This document shows, in pieces, positions 3,722 to 13,951 of a stretch of DNA of 64,000 nucleotides. The first letter of the stretch is position 1; each line of letters opens with the position of its first letter. A program made the position numbers and the translations under genes. This stretch comes from Trueperaceae bacterium (GTDB taxonomy: Bacteria; Deinococcota; Deinococci; Deinococcales; Trueperaceae), in NCBI GenBank assembly GCA_965213705.1, contig OZ243913.1:2016001-2080000 (forward strand). Direction: 5' to 3'. The notes under the pieces were generated by a model that did not search any database, had not been told where the DNA came from, and worked only from the letters and a program-made list of their open reading frames with translations.

Positions 3722-4816
3722 CTACCGCGTAGGTGCCAGCACCACCGCTTCGGGCAGGGCGACCGTGACCGCGCCGCTCGGCGCGGTGTTTGAACGTTGC
3801 GCCAAACTCAGCACGTCGTCGAAGCGGAGTACCAGGTCTTTGGTGCGCTCGGTAACGAACAAGTTCCGGCCGTCGAAGGCGATGCCCGTCGGGTTGCCCA
3901 GCAGCGTGCTCGGGCCGGTGAGTTGCAGGCGCACTTCGGTAGCGCCGTCCGCCAGGCTGGCGTTCTCGAGAACGAAGATGCTCCCGTCGGAGTCGAAACC
4001 GGGCTGGTCGGCGGTGGTGGCGCGGCCCACGTCCGAGGCGATGAGCAGGTCCCGGTCTGCCACATAAACGAGGTCGTGGGTGTTGGCCGAGACTTGTTCA
4101 CCGTCTAAAACCGGCGTGACGACGCGGTCGGGTCCGTCCCCACCCCGGTCGATGAGGAAGTCGTCGAACACGAGCACGGTGCCGTCGGTGCCGCCGACGA
4201 ACAGCCGGTCGTTCGCGGTGTCGAAAGCGACACCCCAAGGCCGGCGCGCTTCGCCTGCCGAAGTTGTGCCGAGGTCGTCCACGACGAACAGGGGTGCGGC
4301 GTCGCTACCGGCCTGCATGTCGAAAGTTGCCACCTTCGCCCCGGCAAAGTCCGCCACGACGACAACGCCCAACGTGTCCGCCACCGCGAGGTCTTTGGGC
4401 TCGAGCAAGCCCGTCGCCGCCCCGCTGATGAGCCGGTCTCTGGAAGCGTCGAAACTGCCGCCGTCGCGCTCCAAAAACTCGTCAATCACCATGATTCCGC
4501 CGGGAAACGTTTCGTCCGGCCCGTCGTCAAAGGTGATATAAGCGTCGCCCTGCGCGTCGAATTGAAGGTACTCGAGGCTTCGTGGCCCACCCGCGGTGTC
4601 GAACGCGGGGCTCGAGGCCGACATGCTCGGCGGCAACCCGAAAACAAGGCCCTGCGGCGGGTCACTCGGCACCACGGGTACAGGCGGTTTGCTGACCACC
4701 AAGACCTGAGCTTCGACCTGCGCTTCGACCTGTACAACGGCACCCGCAACCAGTGCGAGCGTCATCACTGTGCCTACACACAGCCCAAACCCCGCCCTCT
4801 TGCCGTTTCTTTTCAT
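3722..4816 (-). CDS. Secreted protein with one copy of the putative beta-propeller module found three times in the 7837-11157 lipoprotein
   Basis: N-terminal signal-like helix; shares FDASRDR, DRLFV..TDGTV, SDVG and GP.T.LGNP with 7837-11157. Confidence 0.75.
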   Translation of the reverse strand: MKRNGKRAGFGLCVGTVMTLALVAGAVVQVEAQVEAQVLVVSKPPVPVVPSDPPQGLVFGLPPSMSASSPAFDTAGGPRSLEYLQFDAQGDAYITFDDGPDETFPGGIMVIDEFLERDGGSFDASRDRLISGAATGLLEPKDLAVADTLGVVVVADFAGAKVATFDMQAGSDAAPLFVVDDLGTTSAGEARRPWGVAFDTANDRLFVGGTDGTVLVFDDFLIDRGGDGPDRVVTPVLDGEQVSANTHDLVYVADRDLLIASDVGRATTADQPGFDSDGSIFVLENASLADGATEVRLQLTGPSTLLGNPTGIAFDGRNLFVTERTKDLVLRFDDVLSLAQRSNTAPSGAVTVALPEAVVLAPTR

Positions 4817-4897
4817 TTTCGCACCCCCTTGACAAAAATGACCCCGACTCATCCTAACAAGTTGGAGGTCGGACGGGTTCCGGTCTCGTGCCGGGGG

Positions 4898-5920
4898 TCA
4901 ATCCGAAGGCTTGTAAACGACGGTGACGGACTGCGTTACGGGTTCACCCGTTGCCGTCGTCGCGGTGACCGTGAGCGTGTTTTCGCCTATGTTCAAGCCG
5001 GTGGCGGTAAAGGTGAAGCGGTTGTTGGCAACAGCGATGTCGGTCGGCTCACCGCCGTTGACCCGGTAACGTAAAGCACCGACGCCCTCTTCGAGCGTAC
5101 CGCTGACGATGACGCTGCTCGAGCCGGTTTCACCCCCCTGAACCGGGCTGCTAAGCTCGAGCACGTCGTTCGGCCGCGCCTTGAGCAGCGACACCTTGCT
5201 GAGCGGGTCGGTCGGTTGGGGACTGCCGCCTGCGGGTTCCAAGCTCACGTAAAGGGACGCAAATTCGCTGGAAGATACCTCGAACACCCCGCTGCGGGAC
5301 ACGCCCAACGAGGTGAGTTCTTCACCCCGGTCGGGGTCCCAGTCGCTGTTGGTGTGGCCCCACGCTTGGTAGGTGCGGCCTTGCGGCGCGGCGTCGGCTA
5401 GAACGAACAGCGCTGTCCCTGCGGGCGTCAACAAGACGCTGCCGGGCGACTCGGTGCGACTGCTGCCGATGACGTTCTCGAGAACGACTTTTTGCACCTG
5501 GGGCTGCGCTAGGAAGCTGCTCAGCAACTGCGTTTCGGCCCTGGCCTGCCGGTACGCGTCGTTGCTGCGGACGCCCCAAAAAAGGCTGCCGCCCGTGACG
5601 GCCAAGGCGAGGCAAGCCGCCAGCAGCCACGGGTAAACGGGGCGTGTGGACGCACGTGCGGGTTCGGCCAAGACGGTTACGTTCTCCGGCTCGTCGTCCT
5701 CAAGCTCTTGCGAGAAGCGCACCCGCAACGTTTCCCAAACGCGCTCGGGCGGGCGCGACTGCGGCAGCGCCTCGGTCAGTAGGGCGACGGGAGCGGCCAA
5801 CCGCGCTAATTCCTCGCGGCAGGCGGCGCAGTTTTCTAAGTGAGTTTCTATTTTCCGCACCTCTTCAGGGCTCAGTTCACCCAAAAGGTAGTCCGGCAGC
5901 AGGTCGGTGGGATGCGTCAC
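4898..5920 (-). CDS. Membrane-anchored anti-sigma factor (ZAS zinc motif, RskA-like) with an extra C-terminal Ig-like domain
   Basis: HLENCAAC (HxxxCxxC), one TM helix, YQAW and VSLEPAGGSPQPT motifs; GTG 5920 preceded by GGAGAAG. Confidence 0.85.
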   Translation of the reverse strand: MTHPTDLLPDYLLGELSPEEVRKIETHLENCAACREELARLAAPVALLTEALPQSRPPERVWETLRVRFSQELEDDEPENVTVLAEPARASTRPVYPWLLAACLALAVTGGSLFWGVRSNDAYRQARAETQLLSSFLAQPQVQKVVLENVIGSSRTESPGSVLLTPAGTALFVLADAAPQGRTYQAWGHTNSDWDPDRGEELTSLGVSRSGVFEVSSSEFASLYVSLEPAGGSPQPTDPLSKVSLLKARPNDVLELSSPVQGGETGSSSVIVSGTLEEGVGALRYRVNGGEPTDIAVANNRFTFTATGLNIGENTLTVTATTATGEPVTQSVTVVYKPSD

Positions 5921-5975
5921 GGCTTCTCCATTTTTTTCATCACGACGTTTGGCACAGTGTTGTTCATGGCGTCTT

Positions 5976-6509
5976 TCACAGCGTTTCCCAGTGGTCCCGC
6001 AGTTTGAGAAGTGCTCGGCGCAGTTTGCTCTTGACCGTGCCCAGGGGCAAACCGGTGTGTTCCGAGAGTTGCGCGTGGGTAAAGCCGTCGTAAAAATTTT
6101 GTTCGACCAAGGCTCGCTCGTCGTCGGCGAGGTGAGACAGCAACTTTTCGGCGAGTAAGACGGTCGTGGGGTCGCCGGGGTCGGGCGCGGCAAAGTTTGC
6201 GTGGGGGTCGTACACGTCTCGAGCCTCCGCTTTGAGCGGTCTCGCTCGACGCTTGCGCAGTTTTGACAGGGCCAAGTTGCGTGCGATGGTGTACACGTAA
6301 GCGCGCGGCGACTGACTGAGCGTGTGGTAGCTGTCCGCCCTGTAGAGCTTTAGAAACGTGTCTTGCACGACCTCTTCGGCCTCCTCGTGACTTTTGAGCA
6401 ACCTCAGCGCCAAGGTATAAACTTGCGTACCCAAGCGCTCGTAAAGTTCGGCCAATGCCTGCTCGTCCCCACGCTGTAGCCGCGCCACCAACGATGCTTC
6501 CGGCTCCAT
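5976..6509 (-). CDS. ECF RNA polymerase sigma factor (SigK-like)
   Basis: AEEVVQDTFLKL (region 2), GLPLGTVKSKLRRAL (region 4); directly upstream of the anti-sigma gene. Confidence 0.92.
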   Translation of the reverse strand: MEPEASLVARLQRGDEQALAELYERLGTQVYTLALRLLKSHEEAEEVVQDTFLKLYRADSYHTLSQSPRAYVYTIARNLALSKLRKRRARPLKAEARDVYDPHANFAAPDPGDPTTVLLAEKLLSHLADDERALVEQNFYDGFTHAQLSEHTGLPLGTVKSKLRRALLKLRDHWETL

Positions 6510-6613
6510 TACCCTCTATTCGGAGTGACGTGTTTCCTCATAACGGTACTCCGTCCCCTCGTCAACGTTTTACTTAAGCCAGCCCGAAAATACGGCGTCC
6601 CCAGACTACCGCG

Positions 6614-6970
6614 TTACCTGAACGAGGTGGGGAAAACCTCGTGCCACTGCCGCCTGGACAACTCTCCTTGGCAGAGAACGAACGCCTCGTAGTCCTCTAT
6701 TTGCGCCGTTCCCTTCGAGACCGCGTTTTCGATGCGGCGAACGGTGTCGAGCAACTCTTGGGAGCTGCGCCGCGCGACGCTTGCCGGTGTGGTGTCACTG
6801 GGTGGGTCGTTTTTACCTTCGACTTCGGCGGCTTCGTTTTTTACACCCACTTTTGCACCACCCACTTTTACACTGCCCACTTTTACACTGCCCACTTTTA
6901 CACCAACGCCGCCGGAGTTGGACACCGGGTCGCCCGTTTTGCTTGAGGGGTCGTTCGCAGTTCTACTCAT
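6614..6970 (-). CDS. Hypothetical protein with VKVGS-type tandem repeats
   Basis: GGAGG ribosome-binding site before ATG 6970; upstream ECF-type promoter; 15-bp repeats at about 6850-6905. Confidence 0.6.
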   Translation of the reverse strand: MSRTANDPSSKTGDPVSNSGGVGVKVGSVKVGSVKVGGAKVGVKNEAAEVEGKNDPPSDTTPASVARRSSQELLDTVRRIENAVSKGTAQIEDYEAFVLCQGELSRRQWHEVFPTSFR

Positions 6971-6988
6971 GCCTTGCCTCCACTTTAC

Positions 6989-7016
6989 GAAACGCCCTAC
7001 GGCGCGCTTTGGATGC
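6989..7016 (-). promoter_or_regulatory. Putative ECF promoter GCATCC-N16-CGTTTC
   Basis: Same motif and spacing as 7155-7182 and 7680-7707. Confidence 0.7.
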
Positions 7017-7154
7017 ATTTTGGTTCAACGACCCCGAAAACCGCGCGGCACCCCAAAACGAGACCTGTAAGAAGAGCCGGTGAGAAGGGCTGGTGAGAAG
7101 GACCGGGTGAAAGCGGAGCGACAGCGAACCCTTCCGGCCCGCGTTTGCGACCGT

Positions 7155-7182
7155 GCATCCAAATGTTGCGGGCGCACGTTAC
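7155..7182 (+). promoter_or_regulatory. Putative ECF promoter GCATCC-N16-CGTTAC
   Basis: GCATCC aaatgttgcgggcgca CGTTAC upstream of the 7241 ORF. Confidence 0.7.
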
Positions 7183-7240
7183 TTAGACCGGGAGTGGTGG
7201 GTATGGCTAAGCGTCGAACAGGCGACGAGTTGGGGACGGT

Positions 7241-7471
7241 ATGACTTTTGATACTTTGCGGGGCCGGCTGCAACGGCTCAAAACCTTGGCCGAAGTCGTA
7301 GCTGCGGACGACTACGCGACAACGTTGCGGGAGATTCTTGGAGAGTTGGAGAATGAGCTGGAGGGGGGGCTCGAGCCTTTTTCCTCCGGCAGTGCGCGCG
7401 AGGTCGACCCGGCGCTGCTGGGCAGTTTGCACCGCCGCCTGGTAAAAGCCGGGCGTCCCGGAGGCGCGTAG
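7241..7471 (+). CDS. Small hypothetical helical protein (76 aa)
   Basis: ATG ORF downstream of an ECF-type promoter; amphipathic helical composition. Confidence 0.6.
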   Translation: MTFDTLRGRLQRLKTLAEVVAADDYATTLREILGELENELEGGLEPFSSGSAREVDPALLGSLHRRLVKAGRPGGA

Positions 7472-7498
7472 CCGCGCTGAAGCGTCAGCGTCCTCGGT

Positions 7499-7624
7499 AA
7501 AACCGTGCTGCTGTAAAAAAGCTGTAAAAAACCGTGGTGCTGTAAAAAGTGCCGCCGTGTGAACAGGTCGTCTGTGTAAACAGGTCGCCTGTGTAAACAA
7601 GTTGTCCGTCCAAACAGCGTCGCG
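7499..7624. repeat. Intergenic degenerate tandem repeats: 3x GCTGTAAAAA and 4x 17-bp GTGTAAACAGGTCGYCT-like units
   Basis: Units at 7510/7521/7539 and 7557/7574/7591/7608. Confidence 0.8.
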
Positions 7625-7679
7625 CCAGAAAGCTCGAACACCCGTACGTCAATGCCAAAAGAGCTGCTCTGAGGTCGTT

Positions 7680-7707
7680 GCATCCAAACAACTACCACGC
7701 ACGTTAC
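7680..7707 (+). promoter_or_regulatory. Putative ECF promoter GCATCC-N16-CGTTAC
   Basis: GCATCC aaacaactaccacgca CGTTAC upstream of the large lipoprotein gene. Confidence 0.7.
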
Positions 7708-7836
7708 TAGAAACAGGAAGGGAGAAAGTATCGACCTCGATTATGGACGATACCGCCGAACCGGCTCGAGCCCTGCAACACCGCTGGGTTCTTGACTCGA
7801 AACTCCTATAAAAACAACCAGGGAGGTTGTAAATAC

Positions 7837-10800
7837 ATGACCGATAGTCCAAAGAGACCGAACGCAGCAAGGCTGTGGAGCTTGCTGGTCACGCTGATAC
7901 TTTTGGTCGGCGTGCTCGCGGCCTGCTCCGGCGCACCGACGCCCGGCCCCGACCCCGACGCGCCCGCCATCAACATCACGGGGCCGTCCGAAGAGTCCGT
8001 GGTCAGCCAAGACAACGTGGTGGTGACCGGCGTCCTCAACGACAACGTGACCGCGATGAACTACGCGCTCAACGGCGGCCAAGGGCAAGACGTGGCGTTT
8101 TCGGACAACGAGTACGCCTTTCCCATCACGGGCCTGCTCAACGGTAAAAACGAAATCACCGTCACGGTGAGCAACGCCGACGGCGACACCGTCGTCGTCA
8201 TCATTATCATCATCTTCAACCCGGACGCCGGGGGCGACGTGGCCGACACCTTTTACGTGTCGAACAACGGCCCTCAAAATGCCGGCGAGGTGGACACCTT
8301 CGACGAGGACTTCGACCAGCAAAACACCTTTTTCTCAGGCAACAACGAGGGTGTAGACCTAGACCGTTTCGGCGACCTCTACCACGCGGGCGACGGCGAC
8401 AACGGCCCGAGCATCCGCATCGTTTCGCAGTTCTACCTGCGCGAAGGCGGCTCGTTCGACCCAAGCCAAGACCGCGAAATCAAGGGCGACCAGACCGGCC
8501 TCGTCGCGCCCAAGGGCATCGACCTCGCCGAAGACGAAGGGTTCATCCTCGTCGCCGACTTCGGGGCGGACCCGGGCAGCGACAACCTCAAAATCTTCAA
8601 CACCTCAGACAGCGGCGACGTATCGCCCGTGGGAACGACCAGTTTGGCGGTCAAACCCTGGGACCTGGCCTATGACGGCGAGAGCGACCGGCTGTTCGTC
8701 GCGCTGACCGACGGCACCGTGGCGGTGTTCGACCGCTACTTGCAACAAGGCGACTTCGGCAGTGACGGCCCCGACGCCGTTTTGACCCCGGTCGACCGCC
8801 GTGGCGACAAGATTTCCGACAACCTCCACGGAATCGCTTACGACGCGCTGAAAGACGCGCTCGTCGTGACCGACGTCGGTGACGCAGCCGTAGCTGACGA
8901 CGGCGGCATCTACGTGATTCACGACGCGGGCAAAGCGGGCAAACGGGACGGCAAGGTCATTCCGGGGCGCACGATTTTCGGCCCCGACACCCTGCTCGGC
9001 AACCCGGTGGACATCATCCTGAACGGCGACGAAGCGCGTGTGATGGAAAAGGCTGGGGACAAGCTGCTCGTCTTTGACAACATCTTCTACGGCAAAAGCG
9101 GCGAGGTCGAGCCCGACCTCGCGGTGAACGAAACGAAACCTGAGTCGATTGTGGCCGCGCGAGACGACTACGACGCCAAGCCGGGCCAGCCGAACCCGCC
9201 CGCCGGCGGGTTCGATTCCGACTTCGACCTGAACGTTTACCTGTCCAACAACGGCCCCGACAACGCAGGCGACGTTGACACCTTCGACGAAGCGTTCAAC
9301 CTCAAGGACACCTTTGTCTCGGGCAACAACGAAGGCGTGGACCTGGACGTGTTGGGCAACCTCTACCACGCGGGCGACGGCGACAACGGCCCGAGCATCC
9401 GCATCGTCTCGCAAATTCGCAACCGGGACGACGGCGGCATGTATCAGGACAACGTCGACCGCGAAATCAAAGGCGACAAGACCGGCCTGGTCGCGCCTAA
9501 AGGCTTCGACATCGCCGACGAAGCGGGTTACCTCATCGTCGCGGACTTTGGCGACAAAAACCTCAAGGTCTACGGTAGCGCCGCAGACGGCAACGTCGCG
9601 CCCGTCGCCGTGACGCAGGTGCCGGCGGCAGCTTGGGACGTCGCTTACGACTCCGTGCACGACCGGCTGTTCGCCGCCCTGACCGACGGCACGGTCGGCG
9701 TGTTCGACAGGTACTTGGAGAAAAGCTTCGGCGCGGGCGGCCCCACCAAAATCATCACGCCCGTCGACGACGGCGGTAAAAAAATCTCCACCAACCTCCA
9801 CGGCGTCGCCTACGCGCAAGACCGCAACACCCTCGTCGTGACCGACGTCGGTGACGCAGGTGTTGCCGACGACGGCAGCCTTTACGTGCTGAGCAACGCC
9901 AGCAGGATAAACGGCAAGGTCAAACCCGACCGCGTCGTCCGCGGCCCCGCAACGATGCTTGGCAACCCGGTGGACGTCATCCTGAACGGGGACGAGGCGC
10001 GCATCGCTGAAAAAGCGCGCGACAAGCTGCTGATTTTCGACAAAGTTTTCAGCGGCGACAGCGGCGACGTCGCGCCCGACCTGATGGTGGACGAGCTAAA
10101 ACCCGAATCGCTCGTGGCTGAGGACGCCGCCTTCAGGCTGACCAATCCCGACGTGACCGACGTCGACGACGGCGGCACGATGCTCGACGCCGTCTTTGCG
10201 ACCAGCAACGTGCCCGACGCCGGGACCGACTTCGTGGTCGGGCTCGAGCCCGACCTGTCGGGTCAGACCAGCACCTTCGATACAACCGGCGCGACGGTGA
10301 ACCCCGAAAACATCACCTTCGACCTCTCGGGCGACGCCTACGTCACCTTTGACAACGGCATGACGCCGAGTGAGGGCGGGATTCTGGTTGTTAACCGCTT
10401 GGCGGGTAGCCGTGACGGCGGTAACTTCGACGCCTCACGCGACCGCACCATCCAAGGCGACCAGACCGGCCTCGTCGCGCCGAAAGGCTTAGACGTGGTG
10501 AGTGCGAAGGGCCTCGCCATCGTTGCGGACTTTGGTGACAAGAACGTCAAAGTGTTCAGCACCCAGACCGGCGGCAACGTCGCGCCGCTTTACGTCACCA
10601 ATGACCTTGGCAGTGACACGCGCAGCGTCTGGGACCTCGACTACGACCCCGGCAACGACCGCCTGTTCGTCGCCGCGACCGACGGCACCGTACTCGTCTA
10701 CGACGACTACACGGACGGCGGGGGCGCGAGCGGCCCCACCCGCGTCATCACGCCGACCGTGAACGGCGCAAAAGCGTCGGTCAACCTTCACGGCGTCGTT

Positions 10801-11157
10801 CACGTCTCGTCGGCCGCCGGTTACAGCGGCGACGTGCTCATCTTGTCGGACGTGGGCGACGCGGCCAGCAACGCGGACGGCCAGCTTTTCACGCTCGAGG
10901 ACGCCGGCACCGCGAGCGGCAACGTGGCGGTAAGGGCGCAAATCGGCGGCCCCAACTCGACCCTGGGCAACCCGGTCGACATCACCTTCGACGGTGACAA
11001 CCTCTACGTCGCCGAAAAGACCAAGGACACCGTGCTGCGCTTTGACAACATCCTCAACCAAACGGGTCAAAAGGATGTCAGCCCGGACAAGTCTGTGAAA
11101 GTCGACAACGTCGAGTCGGTGGCGCTCGCGCCCGAGTACCTCACCGACTTCCGCTAA
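7837..11157 (+). CDS. Large acidic lipoprotein: Ig-like domain plus three ~320-aa putative beta-propeller repeats
   Basis: GGGAGG before ATG 7837; lipobox LAAC; repeats begin near 8251, 9235 and 10195. Confidence 0.85.
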   Translation: MTDSPKRPNAARLWSLLVTLILLVGVLAACSGAPTPGPDPDAPAINITGPSEESVVSQDNVVVTGVLNDNVTAMNYALNGGQGQDVAFSDNEYAFPITGLLNGKNEITVTVSNADGDTVVVIIIIIFNPDAGGDVADTFYVSNNGPQNAGEVDTFDEDFDQQNTFFSGNNEGVDLDRFGDLYHAGDGDNGPSIRIVSQFYLREGGSFDPSQDREIKGDQTGLVAPKGIDLAEDEGFILVADFGADPGSDNLKIFNTSDSGDVSPVGTTSLAVKPWDLAYDGESDRLFVALTDGTVAVFDRYLQQGDFGSDGPDAVLTPVDRRGDKISDNLHGIAYDALKDALVVTDVGDAAVADDGGIYVIHDAGKAGKRDGKVIPGRTIFGPDTLLGNPVDIILNGDEARVMEKAGDKLLVFDNIFYGKSGEVEPDLAVNETKPESIVAARDDYDAKPGQPNPPAGGFDSDFDLNVYLSNNGPDNAGDVDTFDEAFNLKDTFVSGNNEGVDLDVLGNLYHAGDGDNGPSIRIVSQIRNRDDGGMYQDNVDREIKGDKTGLVAPKGFDIADEAGYLIVADFGDKNLKVYGSAADGNVAPVAVTQVPAAAWDVAYDSVHDRLFAALTDGTVGVFDRYLEKSFGAGGPTKIITPVDDGGKKISTNLHGVAYAQDRNTLVVTDVGDAGVADDGSLYVLSNASRINGKVKPDRVVRGPATMLGNPVDVILNGDEARIAEKARDKLLIFDKVFSGDSGDVAPDLMVDELKPESLVAEDAAFRLTNPDVTDVDDGGTMLDAVFATSNVPDAGTDFVVGLEPDLSGQTSTFDTTGATVNPENITFDLSGDAYVTFDNGMTPSEGGILVVNRLAGSRDGGNFDASRDRTIQGDQTGLVAPKGLDVVSAKGLAIVADFGDKNVKVFSTQTGGNVAPLYVTNDLGSDTRSVWDLDYDPGNDRLFVAATDGTVLVYDDYTDGGGASGPTRVITPTVNGAKASVNLHGVVHVSSAAGYSGDVLILSDVGDAASNADGQLFTLEDAGTASGNVAVRAQIGGPNSTLGNPVDITFDGDNLYVAEKTKDTVLRFDNILNQTGQKDVSPDKSVKVDNVESVALAPEYLTDFR

Positions 11158-11258: not shown

Positions 11259-12503
11259 TCAGGCGGCAAGCGCGGCAAGGGTTTGCGCCAGGGTCTGCAC
11301 GCCTTTTTCAATCGCTTCGGGCGAAACGTACTCGTCCGGGCGGTGGCTCACGCCGCCCCGGCAAGGAATAAAAATCATGCCGACCGGACACAGTCGCGCC
11401 ATAAAAAGCGTGTCGTGGTAGGCGCGGCTCACCATCGGTAAGCTGCCCAGACCGAGACTTTTGGCGGCGGCTTCGACGGCGTGAATCACCTCGGGCGCGC
11501 AAACTGCGGGCGGGTCGGCGTTCAGGACCTTTAGTTCAAGTCCGACGTTGCGACCTTCCGAGACCTCCTCCGCCGCCTTTTTGACACTTTCCACCACGCG
11601 GTCGCGCCGCGCCAAACTGGTGTCGCGGGCGTCGACGCTCATTGTCACGCGGCTCGGGATGCTGTTGACGGCGCGCGGATGCACGTCGAAAATACCGACC
11701 GTGGCGACCGTGTCGACGCTGCCGCTGCTGTGCGCGGCTTCTTCGGCGGCCAGGGCGATTTCAGCCCCGGCGAGGAGCGCGTCGCGGCGCTCCGGCATCA
11801 GCACCGCCCCGGCGTGCCCGCCGCTGCCCGTGAGGGTGAGGTGCAAGGTTGCCGGGGCCGCAATCGCGGTGACCACACCGATGTCCAAGCCTTTTTGTTC
11901 CAGGAGCGGTCCTTGCTCGATGTGCAGTTCGACGAAAGCGTGGTAAAAATCCTCGGCTAAGCGCACGTCTTCTAACCGCCCCGTAAAGCCGGCCGCGCGG
12001 CGCACGTCGTCCGGGTTGCGGCCGTCTTCGTCTGTGAGCTGCCGAACAGCGTCCGGACTGAGCGTGCCGGACATGGCCCTCGAGCCCAAACAGCCTATCC
12101 CGAAACGCGTCGGCTCCTCGCTCGTAAACAAGACGAGTTCGAGGCTGCGCCGCGGCGTAAAACCGCTTTCTTGCAACGCGCGAATCGCCTCGAGCCCGCC
12201 CAACACCCCGACCGTTCCGTCGTAGCGGCCAGAGTGGGGAATGGCGTCGATGTGCGACCCCGTGGCGACGGCGCTCGCTTCGGGTTCGCTGCCAACCCAA
12301 CGTGCGAACACGTTGCCGAGCGCGTCCTCACGCAGTTCGAAACCTGCTTCTCGACACAACGTTTTAAACCAAGCCCTGGCCGCCAAGTCCTGCGCGGTGT
12401 AGAGCACCCGCGTCACGGCGGGCGCGGGCGTGTCCGAAAAGGTGGCTAGGTGCTCGAGTTCGGCGCTCAGCCTAGTTGAATCGACCTCAACACCTTGAAT
12501 CAT
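11259..12503 (-). CDS. M20 Zn-dependent amidohydrolase (allantoate/ureidoglycolate or N-carbamoyl hydrolase family)
   Basis: GSHIDA, DGTVGV, SEEPTRFG, ELHIEQGP, SRAYHD, SHRPDE. Confidence 0.88.
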   Translation of the reverse strand: MIQGVEVDSTRLSAELEHLATFSDTPAPAVTRVLYTAQDLAARAWFKTLCREAGFELREDALGNVFARWVGSEPEASAVATGSHIDAIPHSGRYDGTVGVLGGLEAIRALQESGFTPRRSLELVLFTSEEPTRFGIGCLGSRAMSGTLSPDAVRQLTDEDGRNPDDVRRAAGFTGRLEDVRLAEDFYHAFVELHIEQGPLLEQKGLDIGVVTAIAAPATLHLTLTGSGGHAGAVLMPERRDALLAGAEIALAAEEAAHSSGSVDTVATVGIFDVHPRAVNSIPSRVTMSVDARDTSLARRDRVVESVKKAAEEVSEGRNVGLELKVLNADPPAVCAPEVIHAVEAAAKSLGLGSLPMVSRAYHDTLFMARLCPVGMIFIPCRGGVSHRPDEYVSPEAIEKGVQTLAQTLAALAA

Positions 12504-13951
12504 TCACCCAAAGCCTCTCTCGCTTTTTGCTCGAGTTCCGCCAACATATCATCTATAAGTCCTTGCACAAAAATAGCCAACCTCATCTGCACGGCGGCGC
12601 TGGGTTGAGGTAGCAGTTCTGATACGCGCACCTCAAACAAGCTTTTCTCTTTGGTGCTTCCGCCACGGGGGTCGGCAGTTTGGATGATGATGTCATCTTC
12701 AGTACCGCTGTTTTTTGGTACTGATACGGCATAAGCTCGCTGTAGGTAGATGTTCGTAGGTAGAGATTGGGTAGAGAGGTTAATGAATGCTCCCTTAATG
12801 CCTTGAATTTTCAAAGGCACTCTGTAGTTGGGGTACACAGGTTCATAAGAGCCTCCAAATCCATTGGCCTCTGCTTTCAAAATGCCATCACTATTGCTTG
12901 CTTGTCCCTTTAGCTCATTAGAGATTTTTTCATAAAATGACTGTGCCAAGTCTAAGGCCGCCTGGTCTATCTCGGCATGAGTGTAACCGCTTTGGGTGCG
13001 ATTCAAACTCCTCAAACCTTGTAAGCTTTCCTTCGATGAGCGGGGCTCGGCGGCGCGTAAGCTTTCTTCGACGAGTTGAACGGAATCCAGGGTTCGTTCC
13101 AAAACGAAATTGATAAAGGTTTGAGGCTTGCCTTGGTCGGCCTTCTCGAGCGCTTCGAGGTATTCGTCACGTTTTTCGAAGAGGATGAGGAGAGGAACCG
13201 ATTGTGCGCGGTAAGTAAAAACGGAAGCTAGGGCTCGAGCTACGCGGCCGTTGCCATCGGCAAAGGGGTGAATGACGACAAAAGCGTAATGTGCGTAGGA
13301 AGCTTGCAAAGCGGGGTGAGCGTTTACAAAGTTTTCTGAGCGAAGCTCTTGAATGAACCTGTACATTTCACTCGGTGTAATGTCGGCCGGAGCGTAGGCA
13401 TGAATGTCGCCACTCCGACCGCGCACGTGGTTGGGGGAGGACTTGTACTTGCCCTTTTTGAGCCGGACCTGTTGAGGGCCGATTTCGGTTATGGCACTAT
13501 ACGTTTCCTGATTGCGACACATAATTTCGTGCAGGCTGCGGATTGAAGCTTCGCTGATGGGCGTTTCTTCGGTAGCCAAGTTGAGAATGTATTCGTAGGC
13601 CTCGAGTTGCGCCTCGATGTAGCCGCGAGCCTCTTCACCTTTTTCTGCTAGGGCCGTTTCCCAAAAAGCGGCTTGGGTGGCGATGGTAAAGGTAAAGCCT
13701 CTGTCGACTTCGTACAAGCCTTCGATGGCCCCCGTGTCGACGGCGGCTGCGCGCCGGACGATGTCGTTCGCCTTTTTGAGCAATTCGGGGGAGGCTGTGT
13801 TCCGCCGCTGCTCCAACTGTTGAGTGTAGCGGTTCCACCTCGTCAGGTTGACTGGATATTTTGACCACGCCTCGAATGAGGGGAACGGCCTATAACTCGC
13901 GTCGATAGCACGAATGTCACCGGCAGTGAGCGACGTATTTTGTTCTGCCAT
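12500..13951 (-). CDS. Fic-domain protein
   Basis: HPFADGNGRVAR catalytic motif; TGAIEG inhibitory-type motif; GC lower than the flanks. Confidence 0.9.
   Translation of the reverse strand: MAEQNTSLTAGDIRAIDASYRPFPSFEAWSKYPVNLTRWNRYTQQLEQRRNTASPELLKKANDIVRRAAAVDTGAIEGLYEVDRGFTFTIATQAAFWETALAEKGEEARGYIEAQLEAYEYILNLATEETPISEASIRSLHEIMCRNQETYSAITEIGPQQVRLKKGKYKSSPNHVRGRSGDIHAYAPADITPSEMYRFIQELRSENFVNAHPALQASYAHYAFVVIHPFADGNGRVARALASVFTYRAQSVPLLILFEKRDEYLEALEKADQGKPQTFINFVLERTLDSVQLVEESLRAAEPRSSKESLQGLRSLNRTQSGYTHAEIDQAALDLAQSFYEKISNELKGQASNSDGILKAEANGFGGSYEPVYPNYRVPLKIQGIKGAFINLSTQSLPTNIYLQRAYAVSVPKNSGTEDDIIIQTADPRGGSTKEKSLFEVRVSELLPQPSAAVQMRLAIFVQGLIDDMLAELEQKAREALGE

Follow-up and report, generated by a model that had tools for sequence, protein, structure and literature searches.

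A secreted beta-propeller as the predicted partner of the immunoglobulin-like tail of an RskA-type anti-sigma factor in Trueperaceae

What is the purpose of an immunoglobulin-like (Ig) domain at the C-terminus of an anti-sigma factor? The question arises from a locus of a Trueperaceae bacterium of the Deinococcota (GenBank assembly GCA_965213705.1, contig OZ243913.1), in a 64,000-nucleotide stretch covering positions 2,016,001 to 2,080,000 of the forward strand, hereafter the window. There, on the minus strand, genes for an extracytoplasmic function (ECF) sigma factor, an RskA-type anti-sigma factor with an Ig tail and a secreted single beta-propeller follow one another, and a lipoprotein gene on the other strand encodes a second Ig domain of the same kind. 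An earlier note on this DNA had proposed that the two Ig domains make contact or exchange a strand, so that the anti-sigma factor senses its own target. The evidence points instead to the propeller as the partner of the tail, and the closest relatives of both added parts are found in the target lipoprotein. In the accessible part of PMC7509140, RskA's C-terminal portion is described as restraining activation, and both the signal and the site-1 protease are stated to be unknown.

The sigma factor (5976..6509, minus strand; 177 amino acids, aa) is SigK-like (ECF18/19), contains no cysteine and matches the Pfam families Sigma70_r2 and Sigma70_r4; its match to the NCBIfam SigK model has an E value of 1e-26, under the cut-off. 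The RskA-like gene (4898..5920, minus; 340 aa from an inferred GTG start) stands at position +1 to it, as is typical of SigK/RskA systems. Pfam places a zinc finger (PF13490) first, RskA_C (PF10099, E value 4e-10) second and the Ig tail last. Along the protein, the cytoplasmic zinc-binding motif HxxxCxxC (5819..5845, minus) is followed by the single predicted transmembrane helix (5576..5632, minus), which is also a helix in the structure model, by a tryptophan-containing loop inserted into RskA_C (5333..5362, minus) and by the Ig domain (4907..5161, minus). The tail thus comes after the usual RskA parts and, as the earlier note had said, is not canonical for the family. Including the window's own protein, 42 full-length RskA relatives bear it.

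The steadiest companion of the tail is the propeller (3722..4816, minus), a 364-aa, NHL-like protein whose signal peptide ends near EAQ. Of 364 Deinococcota genomes, 82 gave RskA matches, and the match extended into the Ig domain in 13. The single-propeller family is present in those same 13 genomes and absent from the other 351, among them all 69 that have only Ig-less RskA. After an unpublished genome was set aside, 12 genomes with 16 Ig-bearing RskA loci remained. Every one of these loci has a single propeller downstream, within about 400 bp at 15 of them and 3.8 kb away at the last, and the order of sigma factor, Ig-bearing RskA and propeller is conserved. The tryptophan loop also goes with the tail, being present in 12 of 12 Ig-bearing and 0 of 25 Ig-less RskA proteins among those listed, a count that includes some duplicates and a pattern that missed three loci.

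The lipoprotein is a less regular neighbor. As a check, the earlier note had asked whether the two Ig domains co-occur in other genomes; the multi-propeller lipoprotein was found in only 8 of the 12, and it was not found in G144, G159 (99% complete), G043 (96%) or G102 (86%). G144, also 99% complete, has one propeller and a single Ig domain of the family, the one on the anti-sigma factor itself. In plasmid records of Deinococcus aetherius and D. deserti, and likewise in G043, the sigma factor, Ig-bearing anti-sigma factor and propeller sit beside DUF4394 proteins without this Ig. Other targets (DUF4394, CHRD, Lipoprotein_15 and Big_9 proteins) vary among loci, whereas the propeller is always present.

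A direct contact between tail and propeller is also predicted by structure modeling. The job held three chains with custom alignments: the propeller, the lipoprotein Ig as the second chain and the anti-sigma ectodomain as the partner. The complex scored 0.89 in three runs, compared with 0.02 for the best of three controls; the runs shared at least 51% of contacts, and the predicted local distance difference test (pLDDT) of the partner was at least 83. The most confident residue pairs between propeller and Ig are 349-302, 351-300 and 349-268. In the model, Ig strand 298-302 (RFTFT; 5006..5020, minus) would pair antiparallel with propeller residues 349-353, within the predicted docking strand 346-354 (3755..3781, minus), and RskA_C would add further contacts. 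Ig strand 266-270 (5102..5116, minus), which includes I268, also falls within the predicted interface. Sequence searches gave no close solved relative of the anti-sigma or propeller ectodomain, which makes it less likely that the method reproduced a known structure. In the ESM Atlas, the anti-sigma ectodomain had no usable match, and the single propeller matched unnamed or NHL clusters.

The residues at this interface had already attracted attention. I268 (94%), R298 (94%) and T302 (100%) were picked out as specific to anti-sigma Igs before the complex result was available, and they fall on the best predicted pairs; lipoprotein Igs have T or V, E, and P or D at these places. On the other side, propeller segment 45-53 (4658..4684, minus), also in the predicted interface, and A349 are conserved among single propellers but not shared by the last propeller of the lipoprotein, in a comparison of 19 rows, 18 of them distinct, that missed two single propellers. 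No confident contact was named for the lipoprotein Ig, and a control with the propeller replaced, leaving the anti-sigma ectodomain and the lipoprotein Ig, scored 0.00, which by the method's own statement is no evidence against binding. Strand exchange as imagined in the earlier note is not supported by the structure model of the anti-sigma factor. In donor-strand complementation or exchange systems the acceptor Ig is missing its last strand; the anti-sigma Ig has all of its strands, including the last (324-333), with pLDDT above 90, and therefore needs no donor strand.

The kinship of the two Ig domains, from which the earlier note had started, is well founded. The anti-sigma Ig and the lipoprotein Ig (7969..8223, plus) translate as described there and align over 85 residues without gaps and with 27 identities; their local score is 158, whereas 5000 shuffles averaged 29 and never exceeded 63. 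At the DNA level only 132 of 255 positions are identical, so the split is old, and a recent local duplication was ruled out by this 52% identity together with the separate clades of the two Igs. Both match Glucodextran_B (PF09136) best in Pfam, the anti-sigma copy at 28 bits (cut-off 27) and the lipoprotein copy just under it at 24.7 bits. The modeled anti-sigma Ig is a seven-stranded sandwich that superposes on glucodextranase domain B (1ulv; Z 12.6, root mean square deviation 1.5, 81 residues) in a structure comparison, and profile match and fold together place it in this family. The domain usually forms a stalk after a lipobox or tandem arrays; here it is attached to an anti-sigma factor and has a specialized face.

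The Ig domain as such is common. It is found in 70 of 121 family genomes, a tally that takes in the unpublished genome, mostly following lipoboxes, and is common in Trueperaceae; overall, 26,803 cluster representatives contain it, and long tandem arrays of it are frequent. In the window's genome a third copy (C1:664712) follows the lipobox of an unrelated lipoprotein, N-terminal in that protein; its identity to the other two is 40% and 39% over about 70 aa, and the domain is therefore not unique to the anti-sigma and lipoprotein pair. This third lipoprotein was considered as a regulon member and rejected, as it has no promoter site. Within this large family, the anti-sigma and lipoprotein Igs are nonetheless each other's nearest class, as the earlier note had expected: for 47 of 53 anti-sigma Igs the best score is with a propeller-lipoprotein Ig and not with one of 53 other Igs, and for 16 of 17 lipoprotein Igs it is with an anti-sigma Ig. 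A trimmed tree, in which 64 of 123 rows were kept after 15 long-branch rows and redundant rows were left out, places the anti-sigma Igs in one clade (96/91) that is sister to the canonical lipoprotein Igs (93/82). Cognate pairs are no more alike than non-cognate pairs (p=0.15, 11 pairs).

The lipoprotein (7837..11157, plus; 1106 aa), which consists of a lipobox, the Ig domain and three beta-propellers and is divergent from the minus-strand genes, is a predicted target of the sigma factor because the sigma promoter motif lies ahead of it, and to this extent the earlier note's view of it holds as a prediction. The motif, GCATC(C/T)AA-N14-CGT(T/A), was derived from 28 sites in related loci. In the 4.25-Mb genome it has three sites scoring 28-33 bits, all at this locus (7016 minus, 7155 plus and 7680 plus), while the next-best site scores 15.4 and the shuffle maximum is 18.6. 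The first (6991..7016, minus) precedes a small open reading frame (ORF), the sigma factor, the anti-sigma factor and the propeller, and the sigma operon would probably be autoregulated from it; the second (7155..7180, plus) precedes a 76-aa ORF; the third (7680..7705, plus), with the sequence GCATCCAA-N14-CGTT, precedes the lipoprotein. Among ten related loci with the lipoprotein, eight have the strict motif on its strand within about 750 bp upstream. Between the anti-sigma stop and the propeller start, an inverted repeat followed by a T run (4826-4900), not called by the terminator scan, could lower propeller expression.

Similar switches with other promoters were also seen. Four paralogous loci with the sigma factor, Ig-bearing RskA and propeller have the variant promoter GCATACAA (L053:9174, L055:9249, L056:9246 and L058:9192), and their other neighbors are Big_9 lipoproteins, CHRD and Lipoprotein_15; the variant suggests insulated parallel switches in one cell. 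At four loci with Ig-less RskA (L064, L065, L194 and L199), a -10 variant, CATA, replaces CGTT or CGTA.

Where did the tail and the propeller come from? In an unrooted tree, with row G043_dn disregarded, the single propellers make up a clade of their own (98/99). It lies with the last propellers of the lipoproteins, and a split (97/100) divides these from the first and middle propellers. This grouping ruled out the copying of the Ig and first propeller as one block. Two-propeller lipoproteins of Gammaproteobacteria (Pseudoalteromonas, Catenovulum and Marinobacter plasmids) have homologous first and last propellers; where the Ig would be they have a short Gly-X-Y stretch resembling collagen, and no single-propeller gene occurs in the gammaproteobacterial stretches read. 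Two of three have the same promoter motif, and the remaining one has an Ig-less RskA and a DUF3455 gene next to it, so the target lipoprotein is an old member of RskA-type regulons. We infer a single recruitment of each part out of the Ig-propeller lipoprotein of the same regulon, the Ig as a receptor and the last propeller as a free co-sensor; the order of these events is likewise inferential, the trees being unrooted.

Taken as a working model, the secreted propeller probably binds the Ig tail and shields the C-terminal region of RskA, until a ligand or a change in the envelope releases it and proteolysis proceeds as for SigK. Docking would likely keep the anti-sigma factor in its off state by protecting this region against site-1 cleavage. 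The tail might be freed when the propeller binds a ligand shared with the target propellers, or by envelope damage, and regulated intramembrane proteolysis, by analogy with SigK/RskA, would then start and release the sigma factor. Because the propeller gene belongs to the predicted operon of the sigma factor itself, inducing it would complete a negative loop, and the feedback idea of the earlier note may survive in this form. More tentatively, the switch could have used its output gene as the source of a new sensor, with the Ig copy as the receptor tail and the freed copy of the last propeller as a ligand-binding co-receptor that reads the molecule handled by the target lipoprotein.

Several considerations weigh against this account. 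The Ig-bearing RskA proteins form one clade (91/93, in a tree of 19 Ig-bearing and 20 Ig-less rows), so the co-occurrence with the propeller counts as one gain without an observed loss and not as 16 separate ones, and linkage within an operon could by itself be its source. The score mark of the complex method is one that 116 of 157 solved complexes attain, as do 2 of 215 mismatched pairs, counts that hold only roughly here since three chains and custom alignments depart from the calibration; by the method's own description, 7 of 44 blindly chosen neighbors also pass. Conservation averaged over every residue named in the interface is no higher than elsewhere (0.65 compared with 0.63 for the Ig, 0.67 compared with 0.68 for the propeller). 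The sister relation of the Igs (93/82) is not starred, a first quick tree left it open, and in the trimmed tree five diverged lipoprotein Igs do not group with the rest. The hydrophobic last strand of the lipoprotein Ig stays outside the explanation, and both the signal and the sign of the propeller, inhibitor or activator, are deduced indirectly.

The sign is the point on which the strongest rival turns. In RseA-RseB of E. coli and MucA-MucB of Pseudomonas, the product of the third gene in the operon is soluble and periplasmic; it binds the ectodomain of the anti-sigma factor and controls its proteolysis, and both RseB and MucB are inhibitors. The RseA ectodomain is largely unfolded and RseB has a LolA-like fold, whereas here a folded Ig is predicted to bind a beta-propeller, both derived from the target gene, and the third gene matches NHL and propeller families only; the likeness is one of working alone. 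It is rather unlikely, given that precedent, that the propeller docks on the Ig as an activator which, ligand-loaded or newly secreted, triggers RskA cleavage or an activating state, and an activator within the sigma factor's own predicted operon would create a positive loop. The same co-occurrence and complex model would nevertheless apply to it, and RskA can also activate SigK according to PMC7509140.

Alternatively, the Ig could be a generic stalk or a module binding cell wall or glycan, and the propeller a merely co-transcribed target that does not bind it. The abundance of the domain, its tandem arrays, the unremarkable average conservation of the predicted interface and the single origin of the tail all favor such a reading, yet it is unlikely, as it leaves unexplained why exposed residues that only anti-sigma Igs share fall in the predicted interface and why the propeller is never missing whereas other targets vary.

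The last strand of the lipoprotein Ig bears on the remaining rival. As the earlier note had observed, it reads VVVIIIIIF (8191..8217, plus). Its hydrophobic character is conserved across the lipoprotein family: of 9 residues, 7 or more are hydrophobic in 16 of 17 lipoprotein Igs, whereas none of the 53 anti-sigma Igs has more than 5 and none of 53 other Igs more than 6. Triplet slippage was ruled out as the source of the strand by the conservation of length and register across genera. The strand is modeled as an ordinary last strand (single-chain fold, pLDDT 80, predicted template modeling score 0.71). Our leading guess for its role is a homo-oligomer of the lipoprotein Ig, because three outward Ile/Val residues form a stripe and the gammaproteobacterial homologues have a Gly-X-Y stalk at the same place. 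The lipoprotein Igs at L051, L052, L054, L059 and L061 have diverged: their first strands hold an insert with two cysteines, while the hydrophobic last strand is kept, and at L057 (2470-4572, minus) a lipoprotein of an Ig and two DUF4394 domains, with a promoter site and 6 of 9 hydrophobic residues in the last strand, takes the target's place. That the anti-sigma Ig binds the lipoprotein Ig, or takes its hydrophobic strand, is highly doubtful: although the nearest-class relation, the predicted target status, the conserved strand, the L057 protein and Big_9 Ig lipoproteins near some other loci fit it, the Ig-bearing RskA is kept in the four genomes where the lipoprotein was not found, including G144 with no second family Ig, the anti-sigma Ig is complete, cognate pairs do not covary, and at L063 the lipoprotein has an ordinary strand next to an intact anti-sigma Ig.

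Among described systems, the locus is closest to SigK-RskA of Mycobacterium and to ECF18/ECF19, with which it shares an ECF sigma factor followed by a zinc-finger RskA with one transmembrane helix, and predicted target promoters close to TGCATC(T/C)...CGTA. The predicted sites also fit the ECF18 promoter motif in the supplement of PMC7826278, in the section available, which likewise lists secreted or lipoprotein targets such as DUF4394, fasciclin and DUF4397. The Ig tail, tryptophan loop and dedicated downstream propeller are additions here, and the sigma-4 cysteine pair is absent. As far as the consulted text of PMC7826278 goes, ECF18 proper in the 2021 classification has two conserved cysteines in sigma-4 and is confined to Proteobacteria, so the cysteine-free sigma factor of the window falls outside it, and ECF19 does not require cysteines and includes Deinococcus-Thermus members. 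The D. deserti orthologue appears only as a table row in the supplement of PMC7509140, as a cysteine-free ECF18 member with a 316-aa 'hypothetical protein'. The same paper reports altered RskA more frequently in the sigma class without redox cysteines, the class to which the window's sigma factor belongs. The literature searched, which lay outside subscription journals and took in one supplement in part, contains no account of an RskA with an Ig tail or of a propeller as its partner.

Two small ORFs complete the locus, both behind predicted sigma promoters and conserved in related loci. The 118-aa ORF (6614..6970, minus), which heads the minus-strand run, is conserved in its C-terminal part and has a paralogue at C1:2118927; the 76-aa ORF (7241..7471, plus) is conserved in 6 of 19 related loci searched. 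Neither has a Pfam or NCBIfam family. Tandem repeats lie inside the former (6844-6905, 15 nt x4) and in the intergenic region (7557-7622, 17 nt x3.8). Farther along, a 483-aa ORF (12500-13951, minus) has a Fic-like HPFxDGNGR motif, spotted by eye.

The Ig-tailed switch would be a clean case of a regulator that took the two partners of a new receptor pair out of a gene under its control. The propeller would be a third component, outside the membrane, of the poorly understood RskA signaling family, and the Ig-propeller variant provides a handle on the SigK/RskA signal through two small proteins, predicted interface residues, a small local regulon and a defined promoter. A cultured strain carries the triad, on plasmid 3 of D. 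deserti (L152). If the co-receptor reading is true, the ligand of the propeller would be the first defined input for any SigK/RskA system.

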